This document shows positions 12,201 to 59,528 of a stretch of 64,000 nt of DNA, in pieces. Within the stretch, counting starts at the first letter, position 1; every line of letters starts with the position of its first letter. A program made the position numbers and the translations under genes. The stretch comes from Lingula anatina (Eukaryota; Animalia; Brachiopoda): NCBI GenBank assembly GCA_051362555.1, contig CM120642.1:3224001-3288000 (forward strand). Direction: 5' to 3'. The notes under the pieces were generated by a model. It made no database searches, had not been told where the DNA came from, and saw nothing but the letters and a program-made list of their open reading frames with translations.

Positions 12201-13194
12201 GTACTGTCAGACCATGTTATCACTGACTGTATGAAAAAAAAAAGAATATTCACAATAAGATTCGTTATTTTTTAGATCAGAGGACACGTTGGGGAGGATA
12301 TGTGCTACAACGTTGCATGTGATGTATCAAAAAGGGAACAAGTTGTGGACGTTTTACAGCATTTTAATGTGATAGTCATGCAGCGAGATATATTCAGCCG
12401 TTGTCAGGTATGAATATAATTATTATTGTGAATGGGTAATTTAGTTTCAGTGATGTAGAAAAGTATTTTAAAAAGAGGTAATTTGCTGTTTTCTTGTGAT
12501 TGTAAAACAAAGATATGTTACATTTAACACATGTGAAACAATAAGGTGTTGATGCCCAATTTCTTTTTGTGTTGTGGGAAGAGGGGGGCTATATAAAGTG
12601 ACAGGGAAGAACATGTGAAAGAGAGTAAGGACCCCTCAAAGTGATTGGGTACAGCTTCATCACTTAAGTATTCCACTTAATAAATAACAGGTCTTAATCT
12701 AACTGGTAACCATTGTTTGTTACAGTATCAAGATAGATCAGGCACTACTCTAAACTGCTCCTTCAATCTGGAATGCTCTTATGACTACATTTATGCTTAT
12801 CTTTTAGGTGTGTAATGGAAGCAACTATATCAAAATTCCACAAGCAGCAATGAAGGCAGCATGGCTGAGGAAAAAGGCGCTCAGCCAACACATTCCTTCT
12901 CCTGGCTCACCAAACACACTCCGCCTAGATCCTCACATGAGGCACTGTGAGAAAGAACTGGCTCATCTTGGCATTTTCCTATCAGATGTAACTATACAGG
13001 ACACAGGGAGCACCCTAATGGTTGAAACTGTACCAGAGGGCATTTTAAACAGCATGGAGTACTTTTATGGGTGTGGAACTTGTGGCAAAGTATTCTGGGA
13101 AGGACCCCATTTTGAAAGGACATGTAACCAGTTCAGTCACGTTTTACAAGATTCTAAAACAAATGGGCCTAAAACTGTGTATGATGCTGTATGA
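204..13194 (+). CDS. EXD3: Exonuclease mut-7 homolog (EXD3/Nibbler family): DEDDy 3'-5' exonuclease plus Mut7-C PIN/zinc-ribbon domain; 17 coding exons, about 949 aa
   Basis: Hand-spliced GT-AG exons with consistent phases: 204-270, 703-817, 1083-1497, 1782-1835, 2282-2421, 2763-2866, 3143-3216, 8150-8343, 8581-8740, 8915-9226, 9694-9834, 10208-10337, 10646-10848, 11317-11484, 11742-11795, 12276-12407, 12808-13194 (2850 nt). Motifs: IIVPLLLQDKVN, ExoI IGMDAEWRPSF, GYGFGSDL, SDWERRPLRPAQITYAALDAY (ExoIII), Mut7-C VVDNVLGGLGRQLRCCGVD, DIFSRCQVCN and CGTCGKVFWEGPH. The ATG at 204 directly follows an acceptor AG, so an upstream exon lies outside the window. The first two exons are the least certain. 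Confidence 0.93.
357..635. repeat. Two-copy diverged tandem duplication (about 140 bp unit) in EXD3 intron 1
   Basis: aaaatcatattttattcatacaacagtggaat...gcaagtatatcagttgggatgagg recurs as aaaatcacattttcattcatacaccagtagaat...gcaagtatatcagttgagatgagg. Confidence 0.8.
2910..3065. mobile_element. Short MITE-like element (TIR CATTCAGAATA)
   Basis: Terminal inverted repeat cattcagaata...tattctgaatg and internal inverted repeat agtccgagggtcaaa...tttgaccctcggact. Diverged relatives lie at about 25300-25370 and 50005-50160 (caaatatggcc; agttagtcc...tgaatg). Confidence 0.7.
3473..3535. repeat. 9-bp GC-rich minisatellite (TCCGCCGGC/TCCTGCGGC, about 7 copies) in the HINE 5' module
   Basis: Directly visible. 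It explains the low-complexity ORFs at 3355-3626. Confidence 0.9.
4441..7195. repeat. 146-bp tandem satellite array, about 19 copies
   Basis: The unit start atctccaaaactggcagagatagg recurs at 4441, 4587, 4733 ... 6631, 6777 and 6923, with a diverged copy at about 7068. Confidence 0.97.
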
Positions 13195-27100: not shown

Positions 27101-30100
27101 CAATAGAAAAGAGAAGAGTCAGATGGTAAATTGCCAGGTTCACCTGTGTGTTCTAATTTGAGTAGAGTTGCTGCAAATTTCCGTTGGTAGTTTTGGTGAG
27201 CGAATACATCAAATACAGAGCACTGGAGTAATGTTAGGGAACACTTAACATGTCATGTAAGGAGGCCAACTTAAAAATTTCCCAGAACAGTCTTTTTTTA
27301 AGAGCTCATGAATCAACTCACATTTGTAAACAAGTACATGCCTTTTTCCATGCAGTACAAAAAATGCAATAAAAAGCAAAAAAAAAAAAAAAGGTGAATA
27401 TTGATATGGTGCCTTACATGTATTTATGTCTAATATGAACGTCCACGACCATGAATATTTTGAATAGACTCAAGGCCCTTGAAGATAGTGTCAGCATCTG
27501 CTGTTCTAATTATAACATCATCATGCATATAATTATTGTAACTTGAAATCTAAATACCTAGTTGTTTTTTTTTTTTTTTAATTTAAATTTCTTCTGAAAA
27601 ATAAAAGCAGGGTATTTTTTTTTCATTTAGTGTCTTCTATTGTCCAAAACCAGAATAGTTGGAAGGATTTATATTAGGAGAAATGGGAGAGTTTGTAAAT
27701 CAAAATAAGATATCAACAACCATCAGTTTTTGCATTCCAACACAGACAACTGACACCCATTATGATACCCCTGCCCTGAATCTACAGACCAAAGATAAAG
27801 GCATCATCTTACTAGGAGGTAGTTGCTTTGGAGAAGCATGTGTGAGGCCTAATGTGTGCTAATAAGCTTCTCATCACATAAGAGTAAATCTGTGAAATGA
27901 GGTGTACCAGTTGACAAGATGAGCCGTGAAATGAGAGGTAATCATTCTTGGCAGTGGGGTCTACAGAACTGTGTCAGACCAAGAGCTTTCATATAAATTA
28001 ACAAAATATTGCAATTAGAAATTCATGCATATGGTAACTCAAACACTTAATCTGTGGTTAACAGTTATGTGAGCCCATCTTGAAAAAATGAGGCATGATT
28101 GAAATTACCACATTTGCCCGTACATTGAATTATATTTGTTTTCATTTGAATTATTGAATGTATTTACCACATGTCAATGATTATTTCCACAAATTGGTAT
28201 CTAAATTGTCTTTTGTCTTTTAAAAGTAAAATGTCATTTTTCCCTCATATAATTTAAGAAGGGAGTAGATCCATATGCCATAAAGCAATGATCCATGAAC
28301 AAATGTTCATCATCAGACAGTCCATGCTTATAGTTAAACATCCATGTTAGCATTAATAGCTGTATCTAATGATGCTGAAAGGCCTTAAAGCCAACACACC
28401 AGGGAAATTTGAATGGTAACTGGATTAATAATCAGTTCATACTTGTCAGCGTTCGTTTGGACATGACCTACGAGGAAAAGAAGTCGAGCCCGAGTCAAGT
28501 TTATTAGCTTTTGTTACGAGATACACTTTCTCATTAGATAAGCGGCAAGGTTCGTGGGCAGTTAAACATGACTAGGATTATTGATTTGTTTCACAGAGGG
28601 AAGACTCCGTAGGTCTTGCAATAATCAGATCAGTTAATTTGTGGTCAATTTCACTTCGGAAGTAATTTCTGAAGTATCCTTCCAAATTAACAGAGCATAT
28701 GAAATTTATGTGGAATAAAGTGGTGGTAAAGCCGCCGCATGAAAAAATGCATGAGTTTGATGCTGTGTTAATTTTATTGATTTCTTTAAAGCTGTATAAA
28801 TTTGAGTTTGATTTAAAAACAACCAATTTCTTGATTTACAAGAGAATAAAAAAGTGAAAGCTGTAGCAAAGATGCTGCACTGACCATGATACAAGACAAT
28901 TTATGATGCTTAATAATCATAATAGTCTTTATGAAGAAGATAATGATAAGAGAAGACAGCTCACCTCCTCAAATTGTATTATACAATAATACCTGATTGA
29001 TAACATGTGGCTAATGGAGCAGTAATAAGCATATAATCACTACAATGACTGCTCCCTGAATACACCTGGTATCCTGGGCCCCGTATCTCGAAAGTACCAC
29101 GTATTGCGAATCGCTATATCAAAAAGAGGCTATAGTGTATTATATGGGACGAGTATGGGCGAGTTATGGAATCGAGACGCTTACGCATTTGCGCAACATA
29201 GCGAAGCTTTCGAGATACGGAGCCCTAGTCTCACTCTTCCATGTCTTTATTTTCATATCTAGGTAAAATGATTTTTTGCCTGATCAGAATGTGAAAAAAA
29301 TATTAGTCAAAAAATTAATACCATTCGTTTCTAAGAAACTATTTAGAGAACAATTGTATTAGATTAATTTTAAAATATTATGCACACCCATATTCAGAAC
29401 AGTGGACTGAAACCCTTTCTTTTGTGGTAATATTGGTTTGAAAAACGTAATATTATTTGCCTTATTCACTTCCATTCCATGCACTATGACTTTCTGGTCA
29501 AACACATAATCAGAGTTGCCAGTTCTACACAATTACTCATAATTTACTTATTATTTAGGATAGATTCCCATTGTTTACAGGTGTTATTTTATTGTTCATA
29601 AAGCCTTGGAGATTATTTCTACACAATTTAACTTGTGTCATGTTGGCAACTCTGCCCAAGATGCTCAAAAGGAGCCATTCACCATATCATGTGCCATTGG
29701 GGAAACAATAAGCTCAGTAACTGGAACGCTTACATTTTATCTCTCCAAACTTCTCCCTTTCTCATGACTCACATGCTATTATTTCATACTTTGTATGTTC
29801 TATGATGATTAGTCTTCGTTTTCTCTGCCTATGGCCTGTTCAGGCAGCCTGCTGACGGGGATGTTCAGGACAACCTGGGCCAGTTTGCTGGCAGTGGTTT
29901 GTGGGAGCTCGCGGAGGGGGCAGGGTAGGTAGGGAGGATCAGGAGGCCCTGTTCACATAGAGCAGTACAAATAAGCCACACAGAACCTAAAATGTGATAT
30001 CTCACATTGTAACGGTACAGACTGTATCATCAAAGTATACCAGTCAATGTTAATGATTTTCATTTATTTTGCAGTGCTTGATAGGCCAGAGGAAACCGTG

Positions 30101-33100
30101 CTGTTTGAAAATGGCAACATCCCAGCACCAAAATTTGAACCTGCCTTCTGTGTTCTTCTCCAGGAGCAACATAACCTTACTATGCACAGGACAGAGAAGG
30201 TGAGTGCAATTTTTATTTTTTATATTTTTTATTTTATTTATTGCTTCATTAAAGCTTTGTTACAATGTTACCATTTCATTTACACTGAGTCAAAAAAAAA
30301 TGCATGCCAGAGCATATGAGTCTGCTTAAGATTTTGTCTTTTTCGGGTGAAATTCATCAAAAACTTTAATAGCTTCACCAGGCAGCAGTTGTTCTGCAGG
30401 GATCCTTCTCTGATTGGTCTCTTTTCTAAGGTCGTCTGCCACGGCTTTCACATCTACACATCCCGCTTCATCCTCAAAGTGGGGAGAAATATCATCCGCT
30501 GTGGTCCCATAGTAAATTTTAACTATTCTGTAAAATGGCACATTTCTAATATGAACATCTTTTAAACATTTATGTTGCCATGAAAACACAATTAATATAA
30601 AAGAAAAAAGCCATTGAATAACATCCATAATTGTTCTGACAAATGAAAATGACAGTGATCAGCTTTTTACACTGAGTCTACTTATTGTGGTTGTTTGTCT
30701 AATTTTAGCAGTCTTAGCTTTGCCCAAAAACTTAATATTTCAATATTTCAAAAAAAAAAAAATGTCCCCTCTGACTTGCCATACCCAGCATACTGTATCA
30801 CAGCAGCACACATGATACATGGCTCACAGTTCGTGTAAATCTCGGCTCCCGTGAGATGTAGCGTCTTTAGTGCCGAGCACGTGTTACGAATGGCCTCCAC
30901 TTCTCCGTGTGCAGTGGGATCATGGCGTACTTTGATGTGATTCCAGCCTTCTCCTGCAAGAGATGGAAGATGTTTAGTTTGAACACTGGAATTAGATTTT
31001 GTACAAAAATAACTAGCATGAATAGAATAACATCCAGAGGTAGACATGGATTTTAGAACCCTTTATTGATAATCTCAATGTAACAGGTAAAAGTGTTAAA
31101 AGGGGAGGGGGGGCTAGAAAATATTTTTGTAGAAATTGGCCAAATGTAGCCCAAGGAGATAATGTGTGTCTGCTGGTCCTCAGGTGTGCTGGGATATATT
31201 TTGCCCTCAGTCCCACATGTCCTGCTCTTGCCCAGGTGTCATGGACCAAAGCCTGCTTCATGTGGTAAGCTTAGGCTGCTAAAATTGCATAGTCAGCAGG
31301 GGCGGATTTAGGCCGTCTTCTGGGTCTTCCGGAAGACGGTCAGATTTTCAAGTTTACATTGACGGTATCTATTTTTTTCTGATGGAAGATGGTCAAAATT
31401 GGAGGATGGATCAACAAAGATAATTTGGAAGACTGTCAGAAAATATCTTTGGATCCGCCCCTGGTCAGCTTCATTATAAATAATCACATTCTTTTACTAG
31501 TGGTGATAGGGGCAATGGTAGGACGTGCAGTAAGGGGGTACACCTGACTGATCAGGGGCTTATTTTTCATACTCAAACCCACAATGATAGATCCCTTACA
31601 GCAATATTCCAATACAGCACAAGCAAAAAACAACAATCACAACGACTTTCTTTCCTGTATTTGTTGACAGCTTATTTTTATTTGCCATATTTGCATTAGT
31701 CATTTTCTTTCTCTTATGTAAGATGATATGCAGAAACTACAACCAACAATATATACATATAACACAATAAGCTGAAGATATAATTCTAATGATTCATTGC
31801 ACCCTACCTATAATCTTGTAATCTCTCACAATGACACTTCCAAAAGCCTCACCATCTCCAGTGGCTGCTGCTCTTCTGCTGAGTTCTATAGCCCTCCTCA
31901 TGAAATGCAGCTTTAGGGCCTCTTCTGTGGCCATTTTATAAATTTACAGAACAAGTGGTCATCATTGCTCGTCTAAGTTAATAGTGACTGGGAAGTGACT
32001 GGGTGGCAGATATTATCACTGTACAAACAATTGTTGATTGACCTAAATGACTATTTGGGTCATTGGTTTGATCTCCTGTCATCTGTTTTGGGAAATTATG
32101 CTATCGTTTTAATGTTCTAAATTATAAAATTCAGTGAGAACATCTGTGAGTATTTGCTAGCCCTCTAACCTAAGAAATTTGATGTGCTTGTACCATAACA
32201 TGGCTTTATAAATGATCACAGACTAAATTCATTCAGTCTAATAACTTTATTCTGTAAGTACAGAAAGCTACAGAAAGGTAGTGGTTTTTCAAGTAACTAA
32301 ATAAATGGTTAGTGTGTGTATGCGCACGTGCACATGTGTGTGTGTGTGTGTGTGTGTGTGCATGCACACAATTTCTCATTGTTTTCCTTGGTGCCATTCT
32401 TCAAAAACTTTCTGAGCTTCTCCTGATAGTAGGCTTTGTGCAGGAATTTTGCGCTGGTCAGTTGGATTTTTCAGGTCTTCCTCAATGGTCTTTAGCGGGT
32501 GACCCAATATGGAGTAGACCACACACTTGGATACGCCGTAGTAAACCTTTGAAGCTCTGAAATGTAAAGCAAGTAATAAAAAGTAAATAATTGGTACTTT
32601 AATTTTTGGTTAAAGTTGTTTTATTTTAGTCAAAAGTTCTTGGAAATGAATGCTTCTTTTTTAACATTTGACTTTTTACTTATTTACCTCCACCCCCTCC
32701 TGCCCCCCCCCTCCCCCTCCCCCGTGTTTTCATGCTTGATACTACTCTTCTCATTTAATAGTGGTTACTGAATGTCATGGAAAACTTTAAGTGAGAATTT
32801 CAAAAGTTTGTAAAATATTTCATAAATTGGAAATTAATTTTTTTGTTTTTGATTTTAGGAAATAAAATGAATTATAAATTGGAAAAACCACGTTTTCTTT
32901 ACCCAATGATATGTATCGCAGCTGCACACATAAGACATGGTTCACAACTACAGTATATCTCAGTGCCCTCTAGTGACAAAGTCTTCATGGCACGACATGC
33001 GTTACGTATGGCATCGATTTCACCATGAGCTGTAGGGTCGTACTGGGATTTTGTATGGTTCCAACCCTCACCTACAAAATGAAATGGAATACTTAGCGAA

Positions 33101-36100
33101 AATGATGTTTGGTTGTATTATGGCTAGAATCACTGTTCAGCAGTCTGTATGGTTCCACCCCTATGATAAAAAATACTCAGCAAAAATGATGTTTTGTTAT
33201 ATTATGGCTGGGATTGGTGTGGGGCAATCTGATCAGTTTCATTTTACCCTGAAATTTAAAGTACACCTTTAGGACATGAACATAAGTCCCATTCCCAGCA
33301 TACCCAAGGTATGAACTCTGCAAAGATTATGCAAGATACCCAACTCACAGTCATTCGTAGATTTTTGTTGCACTCTTTGTCATATCTTTTATCTGGCTTT
33401 TCTTGACAATAATACTACTTTAAGGAGAACAGTGTGTAATACCTCACAGGGTGTATTAACGATCTTCATATATATTTTTTTTCTCTGCCTTCTGTCTTAC
33501 CTGTAATCTGGCTACCCTGGACAATAATACAACCGTAATGAGAACAGTGTGTAATACCCCACACAGCGTATTAAAGAAAACCTTCATATATATTTTTCTT
33601 TTTTTCTCTGCCTTCTGTCTTACCTATAATCTGGTTGTCCTTGACAATAACACATCCGAAGGGGGCCCCATCCCCAACTTTTACTGCATGTCGGCTAAGC
33701 TCTATGGCTCGTTTCATAAAGTGAATCTTAGATTCTTCTCCTTGACCCTCCATTTTCTATAAACAAAATGTCACAGGTGACCTGTTCCGCTATGTGACTT
33801 TACACTGCTGGGGGTGACAAGTGACTGTCACATAAGTTTAGTACTTGTCAAGTGCCATGTTGGCCTCGACCTGATCATGCGATGTGCAATGCATAACAGT
33901 GAAACCCATTACCAGGGATCAAACTCTTAGTATGTGTAGTTTGTTGAAGATTTTCTTTAATAATATTTTTAAAAATACACACTTTAGCAAAAATGATGTT
34001 TGGTTGAGTCAGTGTTCAACAACATGATCAGTTAGTGGGATTTTGTGTGGTTCCACTCCTCACCTACAAATGAGAATTGATGATGAACAATACTTAGCAA
34101 AAATGATGTTTGGTCGTATTATGGCTGGAATTGGTGTTGGGCAATCTGATCAGTTTCACTTTACCCTGAAATTCTTAAGTACACCATGAGGACATGAACA
34201 TAAGTCCCATGCCCAGGGTATGAACACTGCAAATATTATGCATGATACCCAACTTACAGTCAATCATAGATTTTTGTTGTGCTCTGTGTCATATCTTTTA
34301 TGTGGTTTTTTTTGACAGCAATACAACCATAAGGAGAACAGTGTGTAATACTCTAAAAATGTATAAAGGACCTTCATTAATATATATATATATTTTTTTT
34401 TGCTATGCTTTCTGATTTATCTATAATGTGGTTCTCCTTGACATTGTAAGGAGAACAGTGACTGTGTAAGTATATCAGTGACTGTGTAAGTATATCAAAG
34501 AAAGCCTTCATGTATATTGTTTTCTTTTTTACTCTGCTTTCTGTCTTACATATAATCTGGTTGTCTTTGGCAATAACGCATCCGAAGGGGGCCCCATCCC
34601 CAACTTTTACTGCATGTCTACTGAGCTCTATGGCTCGTGTCATAAAGTGATTCTTAGATTGGTGATTGGGGGATTGATTGATTGGTTGATTTGGTTAATG
34701 ATTTTTAATGAATTGTTATTTCGTAATATTTTAGTTATTTTAATTATTATGTTTGGAGGGAAAATAATTGTTCCTGTTTAGTTTTGTATTTACATACAAA
34801 GTTTTATTTAAGTCACTCTTGATATTTTTCCCGTGTAATGGTAAACATGAAAACTTTTATAAGTGTTCAGCATTGTGGAAGAGAAAAAAAAAACAAATGT
34901 TCTAAATTATAATTTAGTTAGAACATCTGTGAATATTTGCAAGCCCTCTAAGTTTGATTTGCTTGTACCTTAACTTGGTTTTATAAATTATCACATACTA
35001 GATTCATTCATTCTTAGTACTTTACTCTGTAAGTACAGAACAGTACAGAAAGGTAGTGATTTTTCAAGTGACTAAATAAATGGTTATTGTCAGGGACACA
35101 GTTTCTCAATGTTTTCCTTGGTGCCATTCTTCAACAACTTTCTGAGCTTCTCCTGATAGTAGGCTTTGTGCAGGAATTTTGCGCTGGTCAGTTGGATTTT
35201 TCAGGTCTTCCTCAATGGCCTCTAGGGGGTGACCCAATATGGAGTAGACCACACTCTTGGATACGCCATAATAAACCTTGGAAACCCTGAAATGTACACC
35301 AAGTAATAAAAAGTAAATAATAGGTGTTTTTTCTAGTGAAAGTTGTTTTATTTTAGTCAAAAGTTCGTGGAAATGAATGCTTCTTTTTTTAACATTTGGC
35401 TTTTTACTTATTTGCCTCCACCCGCTCCTGCCCCCCCCCCCCCCTCCTCCCCTAGTTACTGAATTTCAAGGAAAACTTCAAGTGAGAATTTCAAAAGTTT
35501 GTAAAATCTTTCATTGGGAGAAATTAATATTTTTTTTTTGTTTTTGATATTAGGAAATAAAAATGAATTATGAATTGGAAAAATTATGTTTTCTTTACCC
35601 AATGATATGTAACGCAGCTGCACACATAAGACATGGTTCACAACTACTGTATGTCTCAGCTCCCTCTAGTGACAAAGTCTTCATGGCACGACATGTGTTA
35701 CGTATGGCGTTTATTTCACCATGAGCTGTAGGGTCATATTGGGATTTAGTATGGTTCCACCCCTCCCCTACAAATCAGAATTGATGATGAACAGTTCTCG
35801 GCAAAAATGATGTTTGGTTGAATCAATGTTCCACAATCTGATCAGTAGTGGGATTTTTTATGGTTCCACTCCTCACTTACAAATAAGAATTGATGATGAA
35901 CAATACTCAGCAAAAAATATGTTTGGTTAAATTATGGCTGGGATTGGTGGTTGGCAATCTGATCAGTTTCACTTTACCCTAAAATTTTAAGTACACCTTT
36001 AGGACATGAACAGAAGTCCCATACTAGCATACCCAAGGTAAGAACACTGCAAAGATTATGCATGATACCCAACTAACAGTCAATCATAGATTTTTGTTGC

Positions 36101-37281
36101 ACTCTTTGTCATATCTTTTATCTGGCTTTTCTTGACAATAATATAACCGTAAGAAAAACAGTGTGTAATACCCCACAAAGTGTATTAAAGAAAAGGTTTA
36201 ACCTTCATATATATTTTTCTTTTTTTTGCAGTTCTAGTTATCTTACCTATAATCTGGTTGTCCTTGACAATAACACATGCGAATGGGGCCCCATCCCCAA
36301 CTTTTACTGCATGTCGGCTAAGCTCTATGGCTCGTTTCATAAAGTGATTCTTAGATTCTTCTCCTTGGGTCTCCATTTTCTATGAACAAAATGTCACTGA
36401 TGGCCTATTCTGCTACGTGACTTTATGTGGCTGGGGGTGACAAGTGACTGTCACATAAGTTTAGGACTTGTCAATTGCCACGTTGGCCTCGACCTGATCA
36501 TGTGATATGCAATGCATAACAACAAAATCTGTTACCATGAATCAAACTCCTAATATGTGTGGCTTGTTGAAGACTTTCTTTAATAATGTTTTTAAAATTG
36601 CACAATAGGTTTAATATTTGCAATAGTAAAATGTTGAAATTATTTGGGCACATTGGGAATCAGTCACCCTCAGTGTAGATATTGTGTCAAGGATATGACA
36701 TCTTCCTTATATAACAGATACAATCCCCTATTAGGTATTACATATATTATGAAATGAATGAATATTGTATTACTTTGGAATATGTAGATCAAATTCTGTC
36801 ATAGAAAACCTAAGATATGCTCTTTTTGCCTCTTATTGAAGATTTTAGAGAAAAGAACTGATTTAGAAATGTAAAATCTAAAAGTTTTTGATGCTTTCTG
36901 CTAATGTCTCCCAGAAATTCTTGTCAAAATGATGTAGTAATTATCCATGTAATGATTCATTGTCAGGGAAACTGGACTAAGCTATCCAATTTATATACAT
37001 GGAATGAAGGACAGAATTAACAAAGACAGATAAAAGTGCTTTATCTTTCAATATTGACATTGTTCATTAACTGCAAGTACATTTTTCATCAAAAAGACTA
37101 AAGTTATATAATCATTTGATTGTCAAGTATCTTATTCTGAGCCATCAATTTATCTTCTTATCAGCTTTGCAATTTATATAATTTATATTTCACAAGTCCG
37201 GCCGCTACAAATAGTCTTCAGATGAATTCTGGGTAAAAGACTGAAGTTCTGGGTCAGAAGATACTGAAAGTGACTTTGTGC

Positions 37282-37328
<47 letters not shown>

Positions 37329-40300
37329 GTTGAAAATAATCAGTATTCTAATAACTTATTCCAGTAACTGTTATGAAATACAGTTTTTAAAAAATTATGA
37401 TACTAGTATTTATATGAACATTATTGTTTACAATTATTAGACGTTTCCAGATGAATAAACTGCTAAATATACACCAAGTGAATCAACTGGCTTGTTCTAA
37501 CCTTTTGACATGCCATCCTCAAATTAACTCAGCACAGATTGATGTATTTTGCACCTATCAGGGAGGTTTTGCTCTCTGGGTTTCAAAAATCAATCTGGGA
37601 AAAAAGCCAGTGAGTCAGAAACTCTGTGTAATCAATACCCAGCATAAACATTTCCTCAATTTTTATTTCTCATGGAGGTTTTTATATTGAGCTGTCCCCA
37701 AAGGAAATGAAGTCAGTCCACAGTGATTCAGACCAAGTTTTAAGTTCATACACAAACAATATGTCTGTCAAAATAATTGATATTTATTGTGTTTTTCTTT
37801 TCCTTGTTGCTGTAATAGGTCCAGATAATTTCAAAGTCCTAATCAGTCACTGATGAAGCCTGCAGATTTGTTCCCTCTAAAGCATGTGGGTTCAGGTTTC
37901 CTTTACATCATGTGTTCCTACAAATGAGGGATATGCGTGGAGGTTAACATCTTGAGATTGTACCAAATTACATATCATGTCATAAATGAAATTGAAATGA
38001 GCTCAGAAATGTCAACTCAAAATAAATTCAGATTCAGTTTTTTTTGTTCCAGTCAGGATTGAAAGGTGCATGAAATGCTAACCATCACATTTGGATACAG
38101 GAAATTGATTTTCTTTGTTTGGAAGGATTCCTGCATGCTTTCTCTTCTTACCAGCAGGTGTATGGCTTCTTATAAATTATTATTCTGTGGGAGATGCCAA
38201 GGCGTGCTTATAACTGGAAAATATCTTTTATTATATAGGATGAATTTTGTCAAATTATATAATTTTAAAAAAATTATTATACTTTGTTTGTTAATTTTTG
38301 TTAAATGATTTTTTTATTTGCTTGTGCAATTTATAAATGCAAGAGTGAGAAAAAATACAGATTATAATATTTTTTTCCACTTATCAAATTTCTTCATTAT
38401 CAACATTGCCTTGCAAGAAAATTCTCTGTCTGAAACAACCTCAATTCTCTAAAGATTAACAGACAGCCTGCATAATCCACAACATAAATAGTAGATGATT
38501 ATTTTGTACTTATTGATTTTCTAAAATTGCCTCTTAAAAGCTTAATATAAGCAATGGATATTGAAAATGAAGAGGCTTTCACGGTTCATTAAAAGGAACT
38601 TGTTATTGAGATTATTTGAATAAAGTCCAAGTATTTTACTAAGGCTTCGTTCACATGCAATGTCTATTTTCTAAATTCTGTTTTCTATTCGCGCTATCTT
38701 ATGATCACGGTCTGTGCCCTGAATATCCCGCCGCGTAATTACTGGCAGCGCGAGCCAGTTACTTATAGTAACTTATAGTAACTGGCTCGCACTGCCAGTA
38801 ATTACGCCGCGGGATATTCTGGGCACAGCCTGTGATCATAAGACATACTGCGAATAGAAAATAGAATTTAGAAAATAGACATTGCATGTGAACAAAGCCT
38901 AAGTAGCAGTGAAATATCCACAGAATCCAATATTGTGTCTTTCATCTAAGACATATCTACATCAGGATTTCATAACAAAGCAAAGAGATTGTTATATCTT
39001 TTTTATCTGTTATGATTACTTTTTCATTCCTTCATGCTAAACGAGATGTCTATATAATATGCAAAAGAAGGGATTTTGATTTTAAAAAAATGTCGATTAT
39101 TGTTAATGGTACAGAAAAAACTTATAAAGCTGGTACAGGGCCAAGCTCATAAATTCAGTCCAGGTTTACCGTCACCTCACAGTGCTGGCTACCAGTCTAA
39201 TTACCAAGTCTGTTTTTTGAAAACAAAAAAATGTGCCTTTCACTAAAATTCAAAAATAGCCCAAAACCTTGTCAAAATCTTCATTGCTGTCCCCTGATCA
39301 GTGTATGTGACTGTTGATGACATACACTAGGGTCTCATAGGAAGAGGATCATACATCATTTCATGAGTATGTGAGTCACTCTCTTGAGATATATTACCTG
39401 TGCTTTTTTTTTTTTTTTTTTTTTGATGAGTGACTTATGTTGGAATAATAAAGTGAGTGTGCTTAAAATGAGATGTGGATGACTGCATAATGACACTTAC
39501 ACCAGATCTGGAAAAATATGGATAAAGTGACATTTGACAGTAATAAGGATGTAAATTTCTGAAATATATATGGGATTTGTATAAAGAATGTAATTTCTTC
39601 TCTCTAAAATTTTGTACTGGATACCACCAAAGAAACATATTCCAGTACTTCATCATGGCAAAAACTAAACAGCTATAGCTACTGCAGTGAGAAAATTCTC
39701 ACAATTTCACTGATGAGACTTTTCCTACTTTTGTCGGAATTCCGACTTTTTCAGGGTCAATCGGGTCATTCTTGTGAATCTTGTACCCTGGACCCACGGC
39801 CAATTTTCCTACTTTTTCATTGAGGACTGGTCTTATCCCTGCGATTTAATTTGTGGTAATTCGGTGAACCCTGCCTGCATGAAAGTTATGATGAGGTCCC
39901 TGTGGTTTGTTCTTATTAATTTATCCCACAAATAGACATCACTTAGTCATGATTAGACTGACACTCTGAACTCCCCCACAGACATAACTGAATTTTCTAG
40001 AGCGCTGGGGCTATCCCTTGTAGTATTAGCTTATCAGAGGTGGTGACAGTGTTGGATGTATGAAAGATGCATTCTGCATGTATGTAGATGGTGTTATTAA
40101 AAGAAGACGGGGGAGAGTGCTAGAAATTTTAGATATTTGTACCAATGTACTAGAAACTTCTGTATCCTCTCTCTTGGATAGACTATGGTCCTATGATAGG
40201 ACCTCTACTGAGTGTCCAGTGATGTAAGATTTTGTCTTGGATTTAAACTACCAGGTAGCTACTTTCCTGTGCATTGTGACCTGGAAATTCACCCAGATAT

Positions 40301-43300
40301 AAAAATGAGGTTGCTAGCTTTGCGTGGATTAGGAAAGGGGATTCTGATTCGTATGCAGATTTTGATGCACCAATTAAAACTGTATTTTATCAGAACTATT
40401 GAGAGAAGCTGAGAGGGTATAACCAGAAGTGAATGGTGAACTACAGCATATGGAGAAAGTGAATCGTCCGACATGTATAAATGGCATTTTTTTATTCAAA
40501 CCATTTATATTGAACATTTGGAATTATTTCCCCCTCTCTTCCTCTTTTCAGTTGGAGTTTTTAATTCTGGAATCATTTCCACACACCACCCTCCCCCTTC
40601 TTTAAAGATGAGGAGAAAAGGTATTGTCTCAGTGACAAATTGGCATTACTTCTTCTCCTCTAGTCTTTGTGATAATCTGATAGAAAAAAATCAATTCTCT
40701 GCCTCTTTTCTAATCACTTAAGTTCCTAATTCAATTTCAGAGCTGCTGCATTTTAATTTGAGCCAGTAATTGATGTATAGCAATTCCTATTGTGTTGGTG
40801 TTTCAATATTTAATGCTTGACCTTCCTCTAGTTGATTTGCTTTTGGGTCTGACATGGAATGAAATGCAGAACTGATTTCAGTGTATGGTGTGATACATAA
40901 TAAAGTCTTACACAGTATGGAGTGTTGTCCATATTTAGCTTGAAAAAATTGATTTGTTTTGTCTGTTAGTTTTGTCTGTTATCCTTTTTTTCTCAAAGCA
41001 CTAGTAGTTTATGCTGAAATAATTACTCCCTGAAATGAAAATTGATCTTCTGGGATTTAGATATGAATTAAGAACTACTCACTACATGTTTTTGATGAAG
41101 GTTAAAAAGAGATGAGAAAATGCTATAATGCACATTCAGTGTATACTGCCTTAAGTGGAAAGTGTATTTTATATTTGTTATGGATTGTTTTGATTCCATG
41201 CTCCATGGCTTTAGCATATTTTCCTCTAGAGGATGAAAAAAGATGAGATAAATAGATAAATAAATGATGTTGTAATACATTGGCAATGTGTGATATTGCC
41301 TTAAGTGGAAAGCGTGTTTCACAGCTGTTACATTAGCATCACTTTCTTCATTCTGATCATTCTTAGCAAAAGTAGCAAGTCAGGGAAGGTGTGCTTGGTA
41401 ATGTCTGACATGTAGGTTTGATAGCAAGGATGAGTGTTTGTGTGTCAGTGTGTGTGTGTATTAGGTGCATTGTCTAAGATGCCAAGGTTAGAAACTAATT
41501 CACGTGTGAGATTCTCCATATTTCAATGGCAATTAAATGATAGAATATCAGTAAGATTGAATTACCAGTGAAATTCAAACTTGGGTATTTATTGTGAACT
41601 TTAAGTGGAATTTATGATATTTATGAAACAAAGTTAGTAGATATTATATTATAATTGTGCTGTCTGTCCTTTTCCATAAAATTCCCTCTACACAGGGGCG
41701 GATTTAGGCCGTCTTCTGGGTCTTCTGGAAGACGGTCAGATTTTTTAGTTAACATTGATGGGTATCTAATTTTTTCTGTCGGAAGACGGTCAAAAATGGA
41801 GGATGGATCAACAAAGATAATTTGGAAGTCTGTCAGGAAATATCTCTGGATCTGCCCCTGCTATACACTTACATAGAATAACTAAACAAACTGATTTGAA
41901 ACATTGATTATAATTGCTTTCTTCTCTACGGATTAAATTACTGAAGAATTTTTATATAAAGTTTGCATCAATTGTATGCAGTATTCAGGCTGAATGGTTG
42001 AGTACCTCATTGTACAGAGCACATCCTCTGTGTCACATCTAGCACAATTGTGCCTGTCACATCTAGGGCAGTCTCAACTACAACAGCCTGTTAAAAAGGA
42101 CTTCATACTTTTCAGAGGATTAACATGACAGTGTGCAAATGTTTACTTGCTTTTGAGTGTATGACTTTCGGAGCTGTATCAATATGCATTTGTCTAATTA
42201 TAGCCAATAAGAAAAATATTTTTTGTTAAAGGCATGATTTTTTATGGAGCATGTTTTCTTTTCTTTTTGTGCAGATTGCAGAAGAGAGATGCCCAAGCTC
42301 AAATGTCCCAGTCCTCCGCCTGGATGAAGGAAAAGCCGAGTTTGACTTGAGATGGGGTTACGAAGCATTGGAAAGCATCAGGGAAAATTCTTTGTCACAA
42401 ACACCGAAAAGTAAGTAAAAATGGCAAAATATTAACTATAGTACCTGGTAAGTAGAGGAAGACGGCATGATTTCATTTTAGTGTAGTTTTAACCAATTTT
42501 AAAGAAATAGATAACGCACGAGTGAAAATTCATCATTGTCTCACTGGTTCAGTCCGGATCAATAACAATTCTACTGCAGAATCTTAAGACCATGAATATG
42601 GAAGCTCACAGGAAATGGCCATTAGGCAGTATATGCATCAGACACTTTTCCTAGTCAGCCAGCAATCCATTAAGTAAATCATGTGAATTAATCTGTGTAA
42701 CTGCCAACCCCAGGGCTAGGTATTGGCGCTATCTGAACGTATCATTACTTAGTGTTGGGTCCAATGGAGAGTTCAAGCTCTCTCAATAGCCAGGGGGATG
42801 TATACTGCATCTCAAAGTAATGGCTTTGTTTAAATTGCTTCAAGGGCATTTATGCTACTGTGGCCGTTTGTGAAATTGAATACCAACTTGGATTATGATG
42901 TTAACTGTTGAAAGGCTTGCTTTTTCTTTGGAACACATCCCGAAGAAATGAGTCACTTTGAAAGGGCTCAAAGATTGTGTAATAGCTGGGGAAATAATAT
43001 GTTGAGAAAAAAAAAATCAATTTTTGATTACTTAATTGTTGCATCTCATATTTTATTGGTGGTCCAGTCAGTTGACAGTAGTGACTATTCTGGAGCACTA
43101 GTAAATATCCACGAGGATCCCTTTTAAAAATAAAAATTTGAATTTGAATTATATATTTTACCCATTATCAAGTTAGTGAAAAGATAAATAAATATACAAA
43201 AAAAAAAGCAATTTGAGATAAGACTAAGAGGTGATGTTTTCAGGATTGTTTGCTAAAAGCCATTTTGTTACTTGATAGTTGATCACTTCATCCAGTGGCT

Positions 43301-46300: not shown

Positions 46301-49300
46301 TGAAATGCCAAGAATTGAATTTGAAGGAAAAGAGCAAATTGGCATCATCAGCATTAGACATATCTCTGTTATAAATTATATGGTAAGTTAAGATAAGTAT
46401 TTTTAAAACATGAGACTTTGTACAGGGATTTGGTCTTACTTGTTCTTTCTTGACAGTTTTTGGTGTAATTTTTAACATTGGGTGGCAGGGGGATCGTTGC
46501 TAATTTGCAAATTGAAATACTGAGATTTTCAGCAACATTAATGATAGTAATGACCACCAGGAATTAGAAAAGAATGATTGCAATAAAAATAAAATTCATT
46601 AAGCATAATGAAAAATTGAAAAGAATTATCTGTACTGTTGGCATGGAACAATATTTTTTTTCTTGACACATTTTTGTAGTGTAACTAGATATTTGTAGAA
46701 GTTTAATGTTAAAATGTGGCAAATGTGTAAGCATATATTTGAGAAGAGAGGAATGATAATTTTGATGAATCAAGTAGCGTGGATGCAAATGGGTTGAATC
46801 ACGCCAGTCACGCTTTTGATTTATTTTTTTGAACCCGCAATTTAGGTATATTCTGTAGTCAACAACAACAAAAACATGTTGATGTCACTCAGAAAAAATC
46901 AATTGCAACTTAAAGAAATACTTGCAATACCTGCATTTCTAAACTACATGTGATAAATTAGATAAGCTTCAGAACAAACCACATTTGTTCTACTAGCTTT
47001 AAATCAAGAACGAAAGATTGATGCTTGCAGTTCTATTTAGTTAAATTTAGTGCTTACAGATCTAATGATTTGAACATAGCTTGGGCAGTTTCTCAGCATG
47101 CTGGGTCCCTTGTTTCTTCCTGCTAGAGTTGCTCTTTTTCTGTGGTAGATTTGTGTAAGTTCTTAAGGTTAATAGTTAAGGTACTGGGCAAAGGTAAGTA
47201 TTGGATATCATTCATCCAGCATCACTAATTTGGTTTGTACAGTTTCATCCTGATGTTCTGTTGAAGTTATGTAGAACAACATCCCTGACATTTGTTACTT
47301 TAATGGATATTTTTGTATCTCCTTGAAACTGTCTTTGTAATAAATAAACCAGTGCTAATGATAGATGGGTAAGATATGAAATCGGCTTGGCTTATCAGCG
47401 TTCCGGTCTCAAATTTAGGGATAGTCCGCGTAAAGCACACCTGGTCCATGTGTTAAAGTACACTCCAGGAAAATATCTCTTCTGAGGAACATACTTCAGT
47501 TTGGGTGACTCACTGAAAAAGTGAGAGCTGTAGCTTTATAATTAATTGGTTTCTTAGTAACTCGTGAGTATAGAAAGCTGGCTGAGAATCACCAGACTTA
47601 AAGCTTTTCTTGCTTTGCAAGTCTCTGCTGTGAGATGCCGTCTGCTCTTGGTCCTTGCTCCACAGTGATAGCTTCTTGTGTAAGATTTACAAAAACTTTT
47701 TTTGGAAAAGAATAGAAAATTGAGGGAGATTTGAGATGTTTTGTGCTCACTGGGCTTCCCAAGCTTGTTTTTGTTCAAGGAGAGGAACAGTATCTAGGTG
47801 CAGCAAGAGGAATGTTAGTGGAAGATGAAGTCTCTTCACCAAGGATTTCCTGCATTTTTGTTATTACCTCAAACAGATAAGAGAAAAACAAGACTAAGTA
47901 CAACAAACATGTTTGTGGATATTACATCAGAGTTTTACTAAAGAAAATCAACAGGAAGAAAATGTTTCTTTTTAAAAGAAGAAAGAGAAAGTACAGTCTT
48001 TGTAAGTAGTATGATTGTTCAACAATATTTTGACTTTATTACAGTTATGCCTAGTGATCAATATAAGTTATTTAATGAATGGACCAAGCCGATGAAATTC
48101 CCTCACTTTGAAATATGTTGAAAATAATTAAATTTTTGAAGTGTATTTAGGATTTGGTCTTAGTGGATTTAGTGGATTTTATTGTACTTGATATAGATGG
48201 TTTAGAGAGAGGTGTGTTAATGGGCTCTCTCTCTCTCTCTCTCTCATTATACAAAAATGATAATGACCCCTTTTCTTTCACAAATGGCCAGTTGTCAGTG
48301 TATACTTTTCATTGAATTTTACTTATTTTTGATTTTGATCTTTTTTGGAAATCAAATAAGTACATTTTCAAAAAAAAAATCATTTGCCTTCCGTGCTGTT
48401 TTGGTCTTGGACTTGTTGATGTACTGTAGCTGTCTATGGGGATTAATAAGGAAGCATAAAAAAACTACATGTCTCCACAAAATTACTCATGTGCAGCCAG
48501 CATCAGTCTGGAATCTGAGGCTGGAGCCTCCCAAAGTATTTACAAACAATTCAAGGTGTCTTTTTTTTCAGTAATTTTTTTTTTTCGTTGATGTCTGCTG
48601 TTTCTCAATTAATGCCAGGATGCTTAATTCACTGTAGCATCTTTGTTTTGGAATGCCCTCACTCTAGAGAATCTGGTGGGAGAATGTGGTCACGCTATTT
48701 GCTGACTTGCTAAAAAATTATCACTATGGGGAAGCAGATTCCTAAAACTCTCTGACATTGGTGAAAAATATTGGGCTGCTTTAGAATGGGTACACCAAAC
48801 ATGTTTGTAGCTACATTTCTTCCTTCTCCATCCCCCTTTCTTTTCAATCGCCAGCTTTGGGCCAAGTATGTATGTCATTGGCAGACACAGGTTAAAATAT
48901 GGTATTTTTCATTTCGGTAAGAACAGGTGCATTTGTCTTGTGTGTGTGGGCTTGGATCATCAGGTCTTCACCTTTGTGCATATTTTAAAGATTAAGTATG
49001 CCAAAAAGTGTTGTTTTTGTATGCAGTGAATTGTGGCCTTTAAGATGCATTGTCAGTGTGTATCAAATACCTTGCCATGGTTGTTAACATCTATCATCTG
49101 AAGCCACTGAAACATTTCTGTACAGTTTGAAATTTAGAATTGGGGTTATAGCATTTACAAATACAAGAGCACAGTAAGGAAATTAAAAACAATTCATTTT
49201 AGGTATCTTAGAAGGACTGCAGCAGTGGTTGAAGGTTCACATGAACTTTTAGTGATACACAGGGGCGGATTTAGGCCGTCTTCTGGGTCTTTCGGAAGAC

Positions 49301-51084
49301 GGTCAGATTTTTAAGTTTACATTGACGGGTATCTAAGTTTTTCTGTCGGAAGACGGTCAAAAATGGAGGATGGATTAACAAAGATAATTTGGAAGACTGT
49401 CAGAAAATATCTCTGGATCCGCCCCTGATACAATCCATAAAAATGTTGAAATAAAAACTGATAGAAAGTGGAAGCTCTAGAGATAATTTACTTATTAGTG
49501 ATTGTAAGTTTACAGAAGTGTTAATAGTTTTAGGTCTGTGGATATTTAGGATTGTTATCAGTTCAAATTTGGATATGTTTTGTTTTTGATTACCCAATCA
49601 AAACTGGAGTTCAACATAACAATATCGATTAAACTGGTGTTAAGTTTACCATACTACATTGTCTATACATGAGCCAGAGGCGGCTGTGTTGTTGGTAGAG
49701 TTGGGAAATAGTTTTTTTTTTCTAGGACCAAAACATTACAGCAGTACTCTGTTTGTTTTGAAATGGTGTTTTGTGTAACATGAGAAAAATGTGAATATTT
49801 AAACTTTTAGCCAATAGGATGAAATTATGATCTGATATGTGCCAGATTTTTTTATTAATTTTATTAGTGAATTAGATATATAGAATTTCTTGTCATAGAA
49901 TTGAATGCTGTCACACAATGTTTATATTATGAAGATTGAGTCCTGTATATTGAGATCATTTACACACTTAAAAATATCTGGCCCAGTGTTTTACTGCTAC
50001 TCATAAGCAGATCAAATATGGCCAACCCACTTGAAAGCTTACCGAATAATCCCTGTGGAGAATCTATTTAGTGCCCATCAGGGGATAATGCAGCAAGTAT
50101 TCAAGTGAGTCATATTTGATCCGCAGATCAGTTAGTCCATGGATCAACATGTTCTGAATGTGCTCACATATCCTGTTAATAGTTCATTATCAGGATATAT
50201 TACATTTTTCAATGTTTATTATAACTAATTTTGTGGTTAATGGTAATCATACTTGAAACCCAAACCACAGCACTATAATTTGCTTATCTGAAGTCAGGCA
50301 ATTCTGTAATATGATCTCATCTCAATAATGAATATTAACTCTGTTGGCTCTGGAGCCATGGAAGTCTGTGATCTGAAAGGAAAAGATTATTATCATCCAA
50401 GCACAACCATGAATGCTAATAGTCTATAATAAAGCCAGATGAGTAGGGGGAAATGTTATCATAAATGAGGTCCAGGCCATTTTTCAGAATGTTGTTGACT
50501 TTTATATCATCAAATGGGTCTGTAATGAAGCGTGATGGTTATTCACAGCAAGCAAGGATGTGAATACAAATGAAGTAAGGGCTTCATTTAGTTGAAGGCG
50601 GTCATTGTTTCCCCCTTTGGTGCTTTTCTTGGACATGGGCACTCCTGATAGAAAAGATGTTATGCAGTTCATCCTTTTTTCGCCTTTCTGTATAAATAAG
50701 TATGATGCCTGCAGCTGGAGGAAGAATCTACTGCTGCAGACATCACAACTTCTAATTGCTTGTTTGTGTCAAAAAAAACTACCATTAAGATCTGTACTGC
50801 TTGACGGAAAGAGTAAATCTTCAAGGTGAAGTCTTTTTTTTCTCTCTCTCTTTAGGCCTGAAAATATAACGCAGCTTGAGTATATCACTTATAATGTAAT
50901 GTTGCTTTGACAAGTGTCAGGTATTCGTCTCGTAGCATGAGTGGCTACTTGTCTTTTCTGGAAGTTGCTCAAGCTCTTGCTCAGTTACGTGCCTGATGTT
51001 TACGCATTTTCTTTTCAGGCTCCGAATCCTTTCTTCGTGAGAAGAGCCAGACTATCGCCACTTCCCATGCACTGTCACCTAAAG
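14247..51084 (+). CDS. Ras GTPase-activating protein of the raskol/DAB2IP/RASAL2(nGAP)/SynGAP family; 5' part only (N-terminal split PH region), gene continues beyond the window
   Basis: Phase-compatible exons: 14247-14307 (MDGNAKMPFPSRIEGWLNVW), 30075-30199 (VLDRPEETVLFENGNIPAPKFEPAFCVLLQEQHNLTMHRTEK), 42275-42410 (IAEERCPSSNVPVLRLDEGKAEFDLRWGYEALESIRENSLSQTPK) and probable 51019-51084 (SSESFLREKSQTIATSHALSPK). This matches my recollection of the Drosophila raskol N-terminus (YPSRIEGWLDV...PLYCVLQQD...IPRVRLD). The C2 and GAP domains are not seen in the window. Confidence 0.78.
16263..16949 (+). mobile_element. Non-autonomous PIF/Harbinger transposon (internal-deletion derivative) with a transposase N-terminal remnant
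   Basis: TIR GGGCCGGTTTCACAAAGCAGTAGTTAGTTAG with its perfect reverse complement at the right end. 3-bp TSD CAG (16260-16262, 16950-16952). Subterminal repeats gtttcacgaagcagt. ATG 16504 opens MAATFLAIRTARRQRRLRRFHERQNLLEYTHDDAIYKRLRL, which resembles HARBI1-type transposase N-termini. Confidence 0.88.
17091..17221. mobile_element. Degenerate copy of the CAGGGGCGGAT-TIR MITE family
   Basis: caggggtggatt...atcaacaaagata...aaatatctctggatctgcccctg; internally deleted relative to the copies at 31297, 41693 and 49260. Confidence 0.8.
19311..19550. mobile_element. Old Harbinger-like MITE
   Basis: Degenerate TIRs ggagtctgtttcacaaaat...attttgtgaaacctgccc resemble the termini of the 16263 element. 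A similar, weaker pair lies at about 20698-20942. Confidence 0.5.
23625..23658. repeat. (AG)n microsatellite
   Basis: Directly visible. Confidence 0.95.
24112..24141. repeat. (TG)n microsatellite
   Basis: Directly visible. Confidence 0.95.
29076..29225. mobile_element. About 150-bp Harbinger/Tourist-like MITE
   Basis: TIR gggccccgtatctcgaaag...ctttcgagatacggagccc (one mismatch) with a CpG-rich interior. The TSD is imperfect. Confidence 0.75.
29844..29924 (+). CDS. Candidate 81-nt in-frame cassette (or alternative first) exon of the RasGAP gene
   Basis: Pyrimidine tract plus ttcag acceptor, donor G|gtaggt, symmetric phase 1, GC-rich and open in the frame of the flanking exons (GSLLTGMFRTTWASLLAVVCGSSRRGQ). 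An in-frame ATG lies at 29831. Confidence 0.4.
30326..31934 (-). CDS. CDA-fold zinc-dependent nucleoside/nucleobase deaminase, GuaD/guanosine deaminase-like, copy A (165 aa, 3 exons)
   Basis: Exons 31934-31808, 30953-30785 and 30527-30326 (498 nt, GT-AG, phases 1 and 2). Protein: MATEEALKLHFMRRAIELSRRAAATGDGEAFGSVIVRDYKIIGEGWNHIKVRHDPTAHGEVEAIRNTCSALKTLHLTGAEIYTNCEPCIMCAAVIQYAGIVKIYYG...RRIPAEQLLPGEAIKVFDEFHPKKTKS. HxE and PCxxC are intact. Confidence 0.9.
31297..31463. mobile_element. 167-bp MITE (TIR CAGGGGCGGAT) with 5-bp TSD GTCAG, in intron 1 of deaminase A
   Basis: gtcag|CAGGGGCGGATT...GATCCGCCCCTG|gtcag; near-identical to the copies at 41693 and 49260. Confidence 0.9.
32376..33753 (-). 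CDS. CDA-fold zinc-dependent deaminase, GuaD-like, copy B (159 aa, 3 exons)
   Basis: Exons 33753-33624, 33071-32903 and 32556-32376 (480 nt). Protein: MEGQGEESKIHFMKRAIELSRHAVKVGDGAPFGCVIVKDNQIIGEGWNHTKSQYDPTAHGEIDAIRNACRAMKTLSLEGTEIYCSCEPCLMCAAAIHIIGASKVYYGVSKCVVYSILGHPLKTIEEDLKNPTDQRKIPAQSLLSGEAQKVFEEWHQGKQ. Confidence 0.9.
33975..34660 (-). pseudogene. Truncated fourth deaminase copy (5'-truncated exon 1, intron 1, aborted exon-2 start)
   Basis: 34660-34550 encodes SKNHFMTRAIELSRHAVKVGDGAPFGCVIAKDNQII without the original start. A copy of the B/C intron 1 follows, then an exon-2 start (34063) that reaches TAA at 34034-34032. No HxE or PCxxC exon is present. Confidence 0.85.
35106..36376 (-). 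CDS. CDA-fold zinc-dependent deaminase, GuaD-like, copy C (159 aa, 3 exons)
   Basis: Exons 36376-36247, 35767-35599 and 35286-35106 (480 nt). DPTAHGEINAIRNTC and SSCEPCLMC are intact. By hand count it differs from copy B at 15 amino acids. Confidence 0.9.
38643..38899. mobile_element. 257-bp foldback MITE with TAA TSD (PIF/Harbinger, Tourist-like)
   Basis: taa|GGCTTCGTTCACATGCAATGTCTATTTTCTAAATTC...GAATTTAGAAAATAGACATTGCATGTGAACAAAGCC|taa. The arms are complementary over about 120 bp up to the centre. Confidence 0.9.
41693..41860. mobile_element. 168-bp MITE (TIR CAGGGGCGGAT)
   Basis: Same family as 31297; flanks ctaca / ctata (4 of 5 match). Confidence 0.9.
49260..49427. mobile_element. 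168-bp MITE (TIR CAGGGGCGGAT) with 5-bp TSD ATACA
   Basis: ataca|CAGGGGCGGATT...GATCCGCCCCTG|ataca. Confidence 0.92.
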
Positions 51085-59401: not shown

Positions 59402-59528
59402 CAGGGGTGGATCCAGAGATATTTTTTGAGTCTTTCAAATTATTTTTGTTGATCCATCTTCCATTTTTGACCATTTTCTGACAGAAAAAAATAAGATACC
59501 CATCAGTGTAAACTCAAAAATTCTGATT
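59402..59528 (-). mobile_element. Truncated, inverted copy of the CAGGGGCGGAT-TIR MITE
   Basis: caggggtggatccagagatatttt...tttgttgatccatcttccatttttgacc...agatacccatcagtgtaaact is the reverse complement of the family's 3' three quarters. Confidence 0.85.

Follow-up and report, generated by a model that had tools for sequence, protein, structure and literature searches.

Intron-bearing GuaD-family deaminase genes clustered within a host intron of Lingula anatina are probably not guanine deaminases

A stretch of 64,000 nucleotides of Lingula anatina (assembly GCA_051362555.1, CM120642.1, positions 3,224,001-3,288,000 of the forward strand; hereafter the window) was analyzed, and a deaminase gene cluster was found on its minus strand at 30326-36376, comprising three intact genes (A, B, and C) and one exon-1 fragment (D). 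Gene A (35106-36376; exons 36376-36247, 35767-35599, and 35286-35106) and gene B (32376-33753; exons 33753-33624, 33071-32903, and 32556-32376) each encode 159 amino acids, and gene C (30326-31934; exons 31934-31808, 30953-30785, and 30527-30326) encodes 165. All introns have GT..AG ends and fall at equivalent codons, the first in phase 1 (after codon 42 or 43) and the second in phase 2, in agreement with an earlier reading of this DNA (the original prediction), which had claimed three intact three-exon genes with the same intron positions and phases. Exon 2 of A, B, and C passes the PF00383 cut-off (E = 5.5e-15, 1.2e-15, and 2.4e-13, respectively). Proteins A and B are identical at 144 of 159 residues; C shares 86-87 of 158 residues with A and B, and has a five-residue acidic insert in its substrate loop.

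Self-alignment shows a duplication of about 1.9 kb common to A and B, and B arose together with its flanks. Fragment D (33987-34660, minus strand; blastn blocks 34660-34505 and 34443-33987 against A) had been taken for a truncated fourth copy. It is a fragment, but one that holds only an exon-1 remnant without ATG (34660-34551), next to a copy of intron 1; no coding exon 2 or exon 3 was found for it by blastn self-alignment of the cluster. Fragment D is likely a by-product of the A/B duplication. Intron 1 of A also contains a degenerate second copy of the exon 2 acceptor and start (35737-35932), likewise copied into fragment D (34033-34114).

The ratio of nonsynonymous to synonymous substitution rates (dN/dS) between A and B is 0.27 (P = 0.001, Fisher test), and the two genes are under purifying selection. 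Intact frames, splicing, and this ratio rule out that A, B, and C are pseudogenes. Bacterial contamination is ruled out by the spliceosomal introns, by the nesting of the cluster in a spliced host intron, and by the GC content at third codon positions, which is 0.39-0.42 in the deaminase genes, 0.44-0.46 in three neighboring exons, and 0.60 in a fourth.

RNA evidence came from seven of nine same-species raw-read runs, with about 6% of each run mapped (25% for run X7). Splicing precisely at the predicted boundaries is seen for the two introns of B (13 and 8 reads) and the two of C (10 and 6 reads), and in these junction reads the first mate is always on the plus strand and the intron ends read CT..AC. 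Genes B and C are thus expressed and spliced. For gene A, no junction was among those listed, and exon reads were seen in runs X4 and X6 at a depth of about 1. Minus-strand splicing expected at six junctions was therefore seen at four, all of them in B and C. Expression is low, the mean depth being at most 5.

The genes had been described as hidden, but RefSeq already has them as "uncharacterized" models on one 1.12-Mb contig: A matches LOC106176444 at 156 of 159 residues, B matches LOC106176361 at 156 of 159, and C matches LOC106176276 at 162 of 165. Six further named Lingula models belong to the family, at least nine in all, which bears out a local expansion. Two of these (LOC106154580 and LOC106154581) are on another contig than the A, B, and C models and may be a haplotype copy; four others (LOC106165098, LOC106165116, LOC106162324, and LOC106169874) form a sister group. 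Other Lingula deaminases are the subject of PMC5956068 and PMC5889660. The LaAIDL deaminases carry other LOC numbers than A, B, and C (PMC5956068), and identity with LaAIDL1/2 was rejected.

The best sequence match in the PDB is Bacillus subtilis GuaD (E = 1e-26, residues 11-148), followed by the plant guanosine deaminase GSDA (E = 3e-23, the match stopping at residue 110) and TadA (E = 2e-19). AlphaFold monomer models were made of the RefSeq B and C proteins, with mean predicted local distance difference test (pLDDT) scores of 94.7 and 93.6. These models align with GuaD (1TIY/1WKQ) over 152-154 residues (Z = 21.8 and 21.6), whereas the B model aligns with TadA over 105 residues (Z = 17.0), the structural match ending at residue 111. 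Because GuaD sequences were abundant in the alignments from which the models were made, the fold match depends in part on the sequence match. The GuaD clade is described as having a helical insert and an extended C-terminal arm, and its presence in eukaryotes is given without detail (PMC3239186). Both features are present in the models by alignment with 1TIY/1WKQ; the arm (residues 110-157) is retained and aligns with GuaD rather than TadA, and the C-terminal half of the TadA type (loop after strand 5 and long helix) is absent in both structure and alignment.

Scores of 81.5 and 78.6 bits were obtained against the NCBIfam TadA equivalog, for which the cut-off is 150 and a canonical GuaD-type protein reaches 86.9. 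In a tree of 44 rows, TadA is split from the ingroup with support of 100/100 (its TadA/ADAT rows being two TadA sequences), and in the approximately unbiased (AU) test a root on the Lingula branch has P = 0.36, so that the tree cannot fix the root. An APOBEC relationship was also sought: SNAD4 matched at E = 0.005-0.03, under the cut-off, and AID/APOBEC structures reached a Z of at most 3.8. The ESM Atlas returned only generic bacterial nucleoside-deaminase clusters. By profile and modeled structure, A, B, and C have the cytidine deaminase (CDA) fold of the Bacillus GuaD type, not that of TadA or APOBEC. The fold claimed by the original prediction therefore stands; the check for a grouping with TadA comes out against such a grouping by profile and structure, and the tree, with its root not fixed, decides neither way.

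To compare active sites, GuaD residue numbers were read off the 1TIY/1WKQ sequence alignment. The zinc and catalytic motif is kept in A, B, and C (HxE and PCxxC, with the catalytic Glu), and GuaD Phe26, Asn42, His53, Glu55, Cys83, and Cys86 are all retained. GuaD Ala54 is replaced by Gly; Trp92 by Ile in A and B and by Tyr in C; and Phe112-Asp113-Asp114 by His-Pro-Leu in A and B or Val-Asp-Val in C. The C-terminal Tyr156 lid is absent, the three proteins ending in His, Gln, and Ser, and both pocket Phe residues after the loop are missing. Trp92, the FxD motif, and the terminal Tyr are jointly kept in 107 of the 114 top unnamed, mostly metagenomic matches. Among 18 named animal sequences, Gly54 occurs in all, Asp114 in none, Trp92 in 4, and the terminal Tyr in 2; 17 of the 18, spread over four phyla, retain Asn42 and the full set of four zinc/catalytic residues. 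One of the adjacent copies in the coral Oculina patagonica (XP_078357779.1, P0424) has Lys for the catalytic Glu and, to judge from this residue, is probably inactive. The original prediction had recognized a GuaD signature, which holds for fold and ancestry, and missed the loss of the residues with which GuaD and GSDA read guanine.

The F-x-acid pattern suggests that GuaD Asp114 is the second acid, equivalent to Glu143 of NE0047, a role for Asp114 that is reportedly also given in Liaw 2004. Activity of a guanine deaminase is lost on deletion of the C-terminal loop, and two acids are a hallmark of these enzymes (PMC9081823). Msd, without a C-terminal lid and second acid, accepts triazines and isoguanine but not guanine (PMC9081823, PMC11963756), its failure on guanine being tied to the missing second acid (PMC11963756). 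In GSDA, re-capping by Tyr185 is one of two key steps (PMC9739398), and the pocket is formed by Phe53, Leu119, Phe139, Phe142, and Tyr185 (PMC10663702). Of this pocket, the Lingula proteins have just a counterpart of Phe53 and, in A and B, an Ile resembling Leu119.

Because Asp114, Trp92, and Tyr156 are gone, A, B, and C are probably not guanine deaminases, and with the guanine-reading residues lost, "GuaD-type" denotes ancestry and fold and not the likely substrate. The aligned residues incline us, with some reserve, toward a free small molecule other than guanine as the substrate. They would be zinc enzymes whose predicted substrate is a free amino-oxo heterocycle or nucleoside of small size, probably other than guanine. 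By homology with GuaD and GSDA, zinc would be bound by His59, Cys89, and Cys92 (Lingula numbering), Glu61 would activate the zinc-bound water and act as proton shuttle, Asn48 and Phe32 (GuaD Asn42 and Phe26) would anchor the carbonyl edge of the substrate, and the enzyme would work as a GuaD-like dimer, the dimer of GuaD being obligate and domain-swapped. With the second acid, GuaD Trp92, and the Tyr lid lost, the pocket would be more open and have a single proton shuttle, and it may suit a substrate that gives up its amino group more readily. Among named compounds, the leading candidate is a cyclic guanidine, for instance creatinine, and a modified base or nucleoside comes next.

Several observations weigh against such a substrate. 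The loop 112-114 aligns with gaps, and C retains an equivalent of Asp113 along with its acidic insert; another acid could thus substitute for Asp114. The best single BLAST scores of A, B, and C outside Lingula are to canonical proteins with FDD and the terminal Tyr. Furthermore, because Trp92 persists in 4 and the terminal Tyr in 2 of the 18 named sequences, the animal clade may lack one common substrate.

Retained guanine or guanosine deaminases, closing the pocket in another way, would constitute a second animal case beside nematode GDA-1/2; we regard this as unlikely, if the strongest of the competing explanations for the substrate. It is favored by the top sequence and structure matches, which are GuaD and GSDA, and by the automatic NCBI name "guanine deaminase-like" of two Oculina members. 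A and B also have His-Ile at the position of GSDA His118-Leu119 (PMC10663702), where Ile98 would accommodate ribose in the manner of Leu119, and NE0047 shows that the lid of a guanine deaminase can be built differently (PMC9081823). However, the proteins lack features that are reported as essential (PMC9081823, PMC11963756, PMC9739398), namely the second acid, the terminal Tyr, and the pair of pocket Phe residues that follow the loop, and animals other than nematodes are reported to have the amidohydrolase guanine deaminase (GDA) already (PMC13419446).

An open pocket could instead act on polynucleotides, i.e., in the editing of tRNA, RNA, or DNA, for example in innate defense like the expanding AID/APOBEC-like genes of Lingula. 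The loss of the lid, which opens the site, the tandem expansion with fast divergence of the substrate loop between paralogs, the position of TadA as the next fold match, and the AU result for a root on the Lingula branch are all compatible with it. This is nevertheless quite improbable, given that the GuaD arm is kept and aligns with GuaD, that the score against the TadA equivalog lies below its cut-off and the E. coli TadA loop is absent, that resemblance to AID/APOBEC is slight and the LaAIDL genes carry other LOC numbers (PMC5956068), that the lid-less bacterial relatives described below sit in small-molecule import operons, and that dN/dS is below 1. Least probable of all is that the proteins serve in binding or are enzymes that are weak or in decay, selection having relaxed once the amidohydrolase GDA made them redundant. 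Low expression, the broken fragment D, and the Lys-bearing Oculina copy could be cited for this reading, but it sits poorly with the near-complete retention of catalytic residues and Asn42 across four phyla and with purifying selection between A and B.

Bacterial relatives bear on the preferred reading, a small molecule other than guanine. Lid-less relatives on bacterial plasmids adjoin ATP-binding cassette (ABC) importers in six of six annotated loci, three of which also adjoin amidohydrolases. Plasmid pLGM of Ancylobacter pratisalsi (locus L020, 3216-13419) carries a complete creatinine-degradation operon around such a deaminase (WP_163078025.1), in the order N-carbamoylsarcosine amidohydrolase and hydantoinase A/B, lid-less deaminase, importer and creatininase. 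The N-carbamoylsarcosine amidohydrolase matches 1NBA at E = 9e-73, the creatininase scores above the TIGR04448 cut-off, and no CodA-type deaminase was found within 8 kb on either side of the deaminase (16 kb). Compared with the enzymes of the route listed in PMC5364220, the lid-less protein would fill the slot of the creatinine deaminase, the enzyme that turns creatinine into N-methylhydantoin, and is, as a lead only, a candidate creatinine deaminase of the CDA fold. At the Terrarubrum locus (L022), a creatininase is present and a CodA-type enzyme is present as well.

Some results count against the creatinine link. It consists of one full and one partial operon among eight lid-less loci, with creatininase in two of the eight and N-carbamoylsarcosine amidohydrolase in one, and all four other loci with N-carbamoylsarcosine amidohydrolase are without the deaminase. 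The Ancylobacter protein is placed without resolution in the 44-row tree, and the AU test does no more than fail to reject its grouping with the animal clade (P = 0.25). In a sample of 401 genomes from the phylum of genome G001, no further lid-less contexts were seen in the top loci; the 30 top loci hold canonical GuaD, with Trp92 in 29 of 29 and FxD in 27 of 29 translated. Five plasmid loci (L029, L062, L063, L064, and L066) hold more distant relatives and are uninformative.

The chemistry of creatinine would fit the Lingula pocket, as the amino-oxo edge that Asn42 and Glu55 read is kept and the imidazole read by the lost residues is absent. Animals form creatinine from phosphagens. A literature search found no paper on Lingula phosphagen kinases. 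Extrapolating from the Ancylobacter operon, one may speculate that the lid-less GuaD branch is a CDA-fold deaminase of creatinine, or of cyclic guanidines, kept in marine invertebrates from corals to acorn worms since early animal evolution and clearing a spontaneous breakdown product of phosphagens; we hold this full scenario to be doubtful. If true, a reaction usually credited to microbes would be encoded by animals, and by a fold not reported for creatinine in the papers searched.

The distribution of the family in animals was drawn from profile and representative searches that cover the best 120-150 matches, and the range is thus a lower bound. Among the matches listed are the tube worm Owenia fusiformis, the acorn worm Saccoglossus kowalevskii, and the corals Desmophyllum pertusum, Oculina patagonica (three adjacent accessions), and three Porites species. 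These relatives point to an overlooked animal enzyme group, and the profile searches and the tree are in line with the poorly characterized and patchy animal group that had been proposed. Many relatives from ENA, Logan, and JGI accompany the named animals, some with two tandem domains. A group of these (P0002-P0005, P0406, P0408-P0415, and P0420), some with clusters of 13-31 members on contigs of up to 1.5 Mb, is nested in the animal clade. Peptide-pattern scans, which reach close relatives only, found none of P0408 in GTDB genomes, JGI metagenomes, or IMG/VR.

For the first tree set, 163 of 177 domains were kept, and for the next tree 121 of 163 (42 of short coverage removed). The 44-row tree was obtained by dropping 23 of the 57 rows of an earlier set (including five long-branch or unstable rows, one of them a ciliate) and adding 10. 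Its 160 alignment columns have little power for inner branches. In this tree, one clade (support 96/90) unites 10 animal rows with 6 unnamed ones, canonical GuaD makes up another (91/97), and the lid-less bacterial groups are basal without resolution. Owenia groups with corals (90/86), so the branching inside the clade departs from animal phylogeny. The ciliate Pseudocohnilembus persalinus (P0345) has a lid-less relative of the HGE type, the position of which shifts between trees.

The simplest origin would be a single ancient transfer out of bacteria, after which introns were gained and the gene was lost many times; it is favored here over repeated transfer, and the family would then have re-expanded by tandem duplication in Lingula. 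Between the two origins offered by the original prediction, patchy retention from an early eukaryote and old horizontal transfer with later intronization, the tree and the AU tests do not decide. Against a single animal clade, it counts that support is weaker in larger sets (Shimodaira-Hasegawa-like approximate likelihood ratio test, SH-aLRT: 90, 81, and 84/82) and that the six unnamed members could be bacterial. A less probable but sizable possibility is that different marine animals each received the gene separately from a single lid-less microbial lineage, which might be the unnamed ENA/Logan/JGI group. The very patchy distribution, the pairing of Owenia with corals, and the nesting of the unnamed group inside the animal clade all speak for such transfers. 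They are opposed by the support for the animal clade in the 44-row tree, by the lack of a close P0408 relative in the database scans (within the reach of those scans), and by the weakness of the alignment for the inner branches on which the argument leans.

The whole cluster is enclosed by a plus-strand intron of 12,075 nt (30200-42274, GT..AG), between exons 30075-30199 and 42275-42410, neither of which was assigned to a family. Five reads at four starts (run X4) show this intron spliced, in the orientation opposite to that of the deaminase reads, which supports the antisense position that had been claimed. No support was found for the RasGAP label given to the host: a six-frame scan found no RasGAP-like motif, and none of 145 plus-strand open reading frames (13.3-64 kb, outside the cluster) reached a Pfam cut-off or matched a GAP family, but the host exons are short and this negative is no refutation. 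The host is a large multi-exon plus-strand gene at about 25200-62000, none of whose tested exons matched Pfam, and it may extend beyond the window. Three AATAAA signals lie downstream of gene C (30217-30242, minus strand), 18-43 bases from the end of the host exon at 30199, so the 3' end of C may abut or overlap this exon in antisense.

Intron 1 of C contains, outside the coding gene, a short dispersed repeat (31297-31463) for which window self-blastn gave four further copies (41693-41860, 49260-49427, 17108-17221, and 59402-59526). The repeat is abundant in RNA reads, many of them loose-ended, and is likely a nonautonomous mobile element. A near-perfect palindrome of 269 bp (38637-38905; 89%), likely a foldback element, is also present in RNA reads. 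Elsewhere in the window, a tandem array of about 19 copies of a 146-bp unit (about 95% identity) lies at 4433-7191, and a plus-strand multi-exon gene at 8587-13188 encodes 3'-5' exonuclease and Mut7-C domains; we take it to be EXD3/mut-7-like.

CDA-fold guanine deaminases have been called nematode-specific among animals and attributed to one transfer, in a 2026 preprint that also admits the alternative of an ancestral presence and repeated losses (PMC13419446). The nematode-specific claim was drawn from BLAST scores averaged over the top 50 for each phylum (PMC13419446), in which a few patchy members would be diluted. That the canonical animal guanine deaminase is an amidohydrolase and the CDA-fold type poorly characterized, as the original prediction had it, overlooks the characterized nematode enzyme of this fold (PMC13419446). 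An intron-bearing GuaD-family clade in four non-nematode phyla makes the alternative of ancestral presence plus loss directly testable. The loss of guanine-reading residues points to a small-molecule deamination not yet assigned in animals, which can be tested with a soluble protein of 160 residues and a short substrate panel, and the Ancylobacter operon offers a separate way to approach a possible creatinine deaminase of the CDA fold. In our literature search, which left most subscription journals outside, no paper on a lid-less animal GuaD clade or a CDA-fold creatinine deaminase was found.

The Lingula genes are a variant of the known GuaD family, with a substrate and origin that we infer. 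B. subtilis GuaD (1WKQ/1TIY) shares their fold over the full length, C-terminal arm included (Z = 21.8, root-mean-square deviation 1.7, 152 residues), whereas the Lingula proteins differ from it at Ala54, Trp92, Phe112-Asp113-Asp114, and Tyr156. Arabidopsis GSDA (7DBF) is second in fold (Z = 17.9, 124 residues); its His118-Leu119 is matched by His-Ile in A and B, but its Tyr185 lid and Phe139/Phe142 are without equivalents. Mycobacterial Msd (5XKO/5XKQ) is distant (E = 1e-9, Z = 13.3) and uses its own gating loop, and serves as a functional analogy: it is without a C-terminal tail and second acid, and so avoids guanine. The Ancylobacter protein resembles the Lingula proteins in its HGE motif, the hydrophobic residue at 114, and the absent terminal Tyr, but keeps Trp92 and lies in a creatinine-degradation operon. 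C. elegans GDA-1 and GDA-2, nematode sequences being outside the named matches and trees of this analysis, are likewise duplicated animal genes of the CDA-fold GuaD family with a proposed bacterial origin (PMC13419446). Unlike the Lingula proteins, which have lost these residues, they conserve the substrate-binding residues of BsGDA, and their activity on guanine was shown genetically (PMC13419446).

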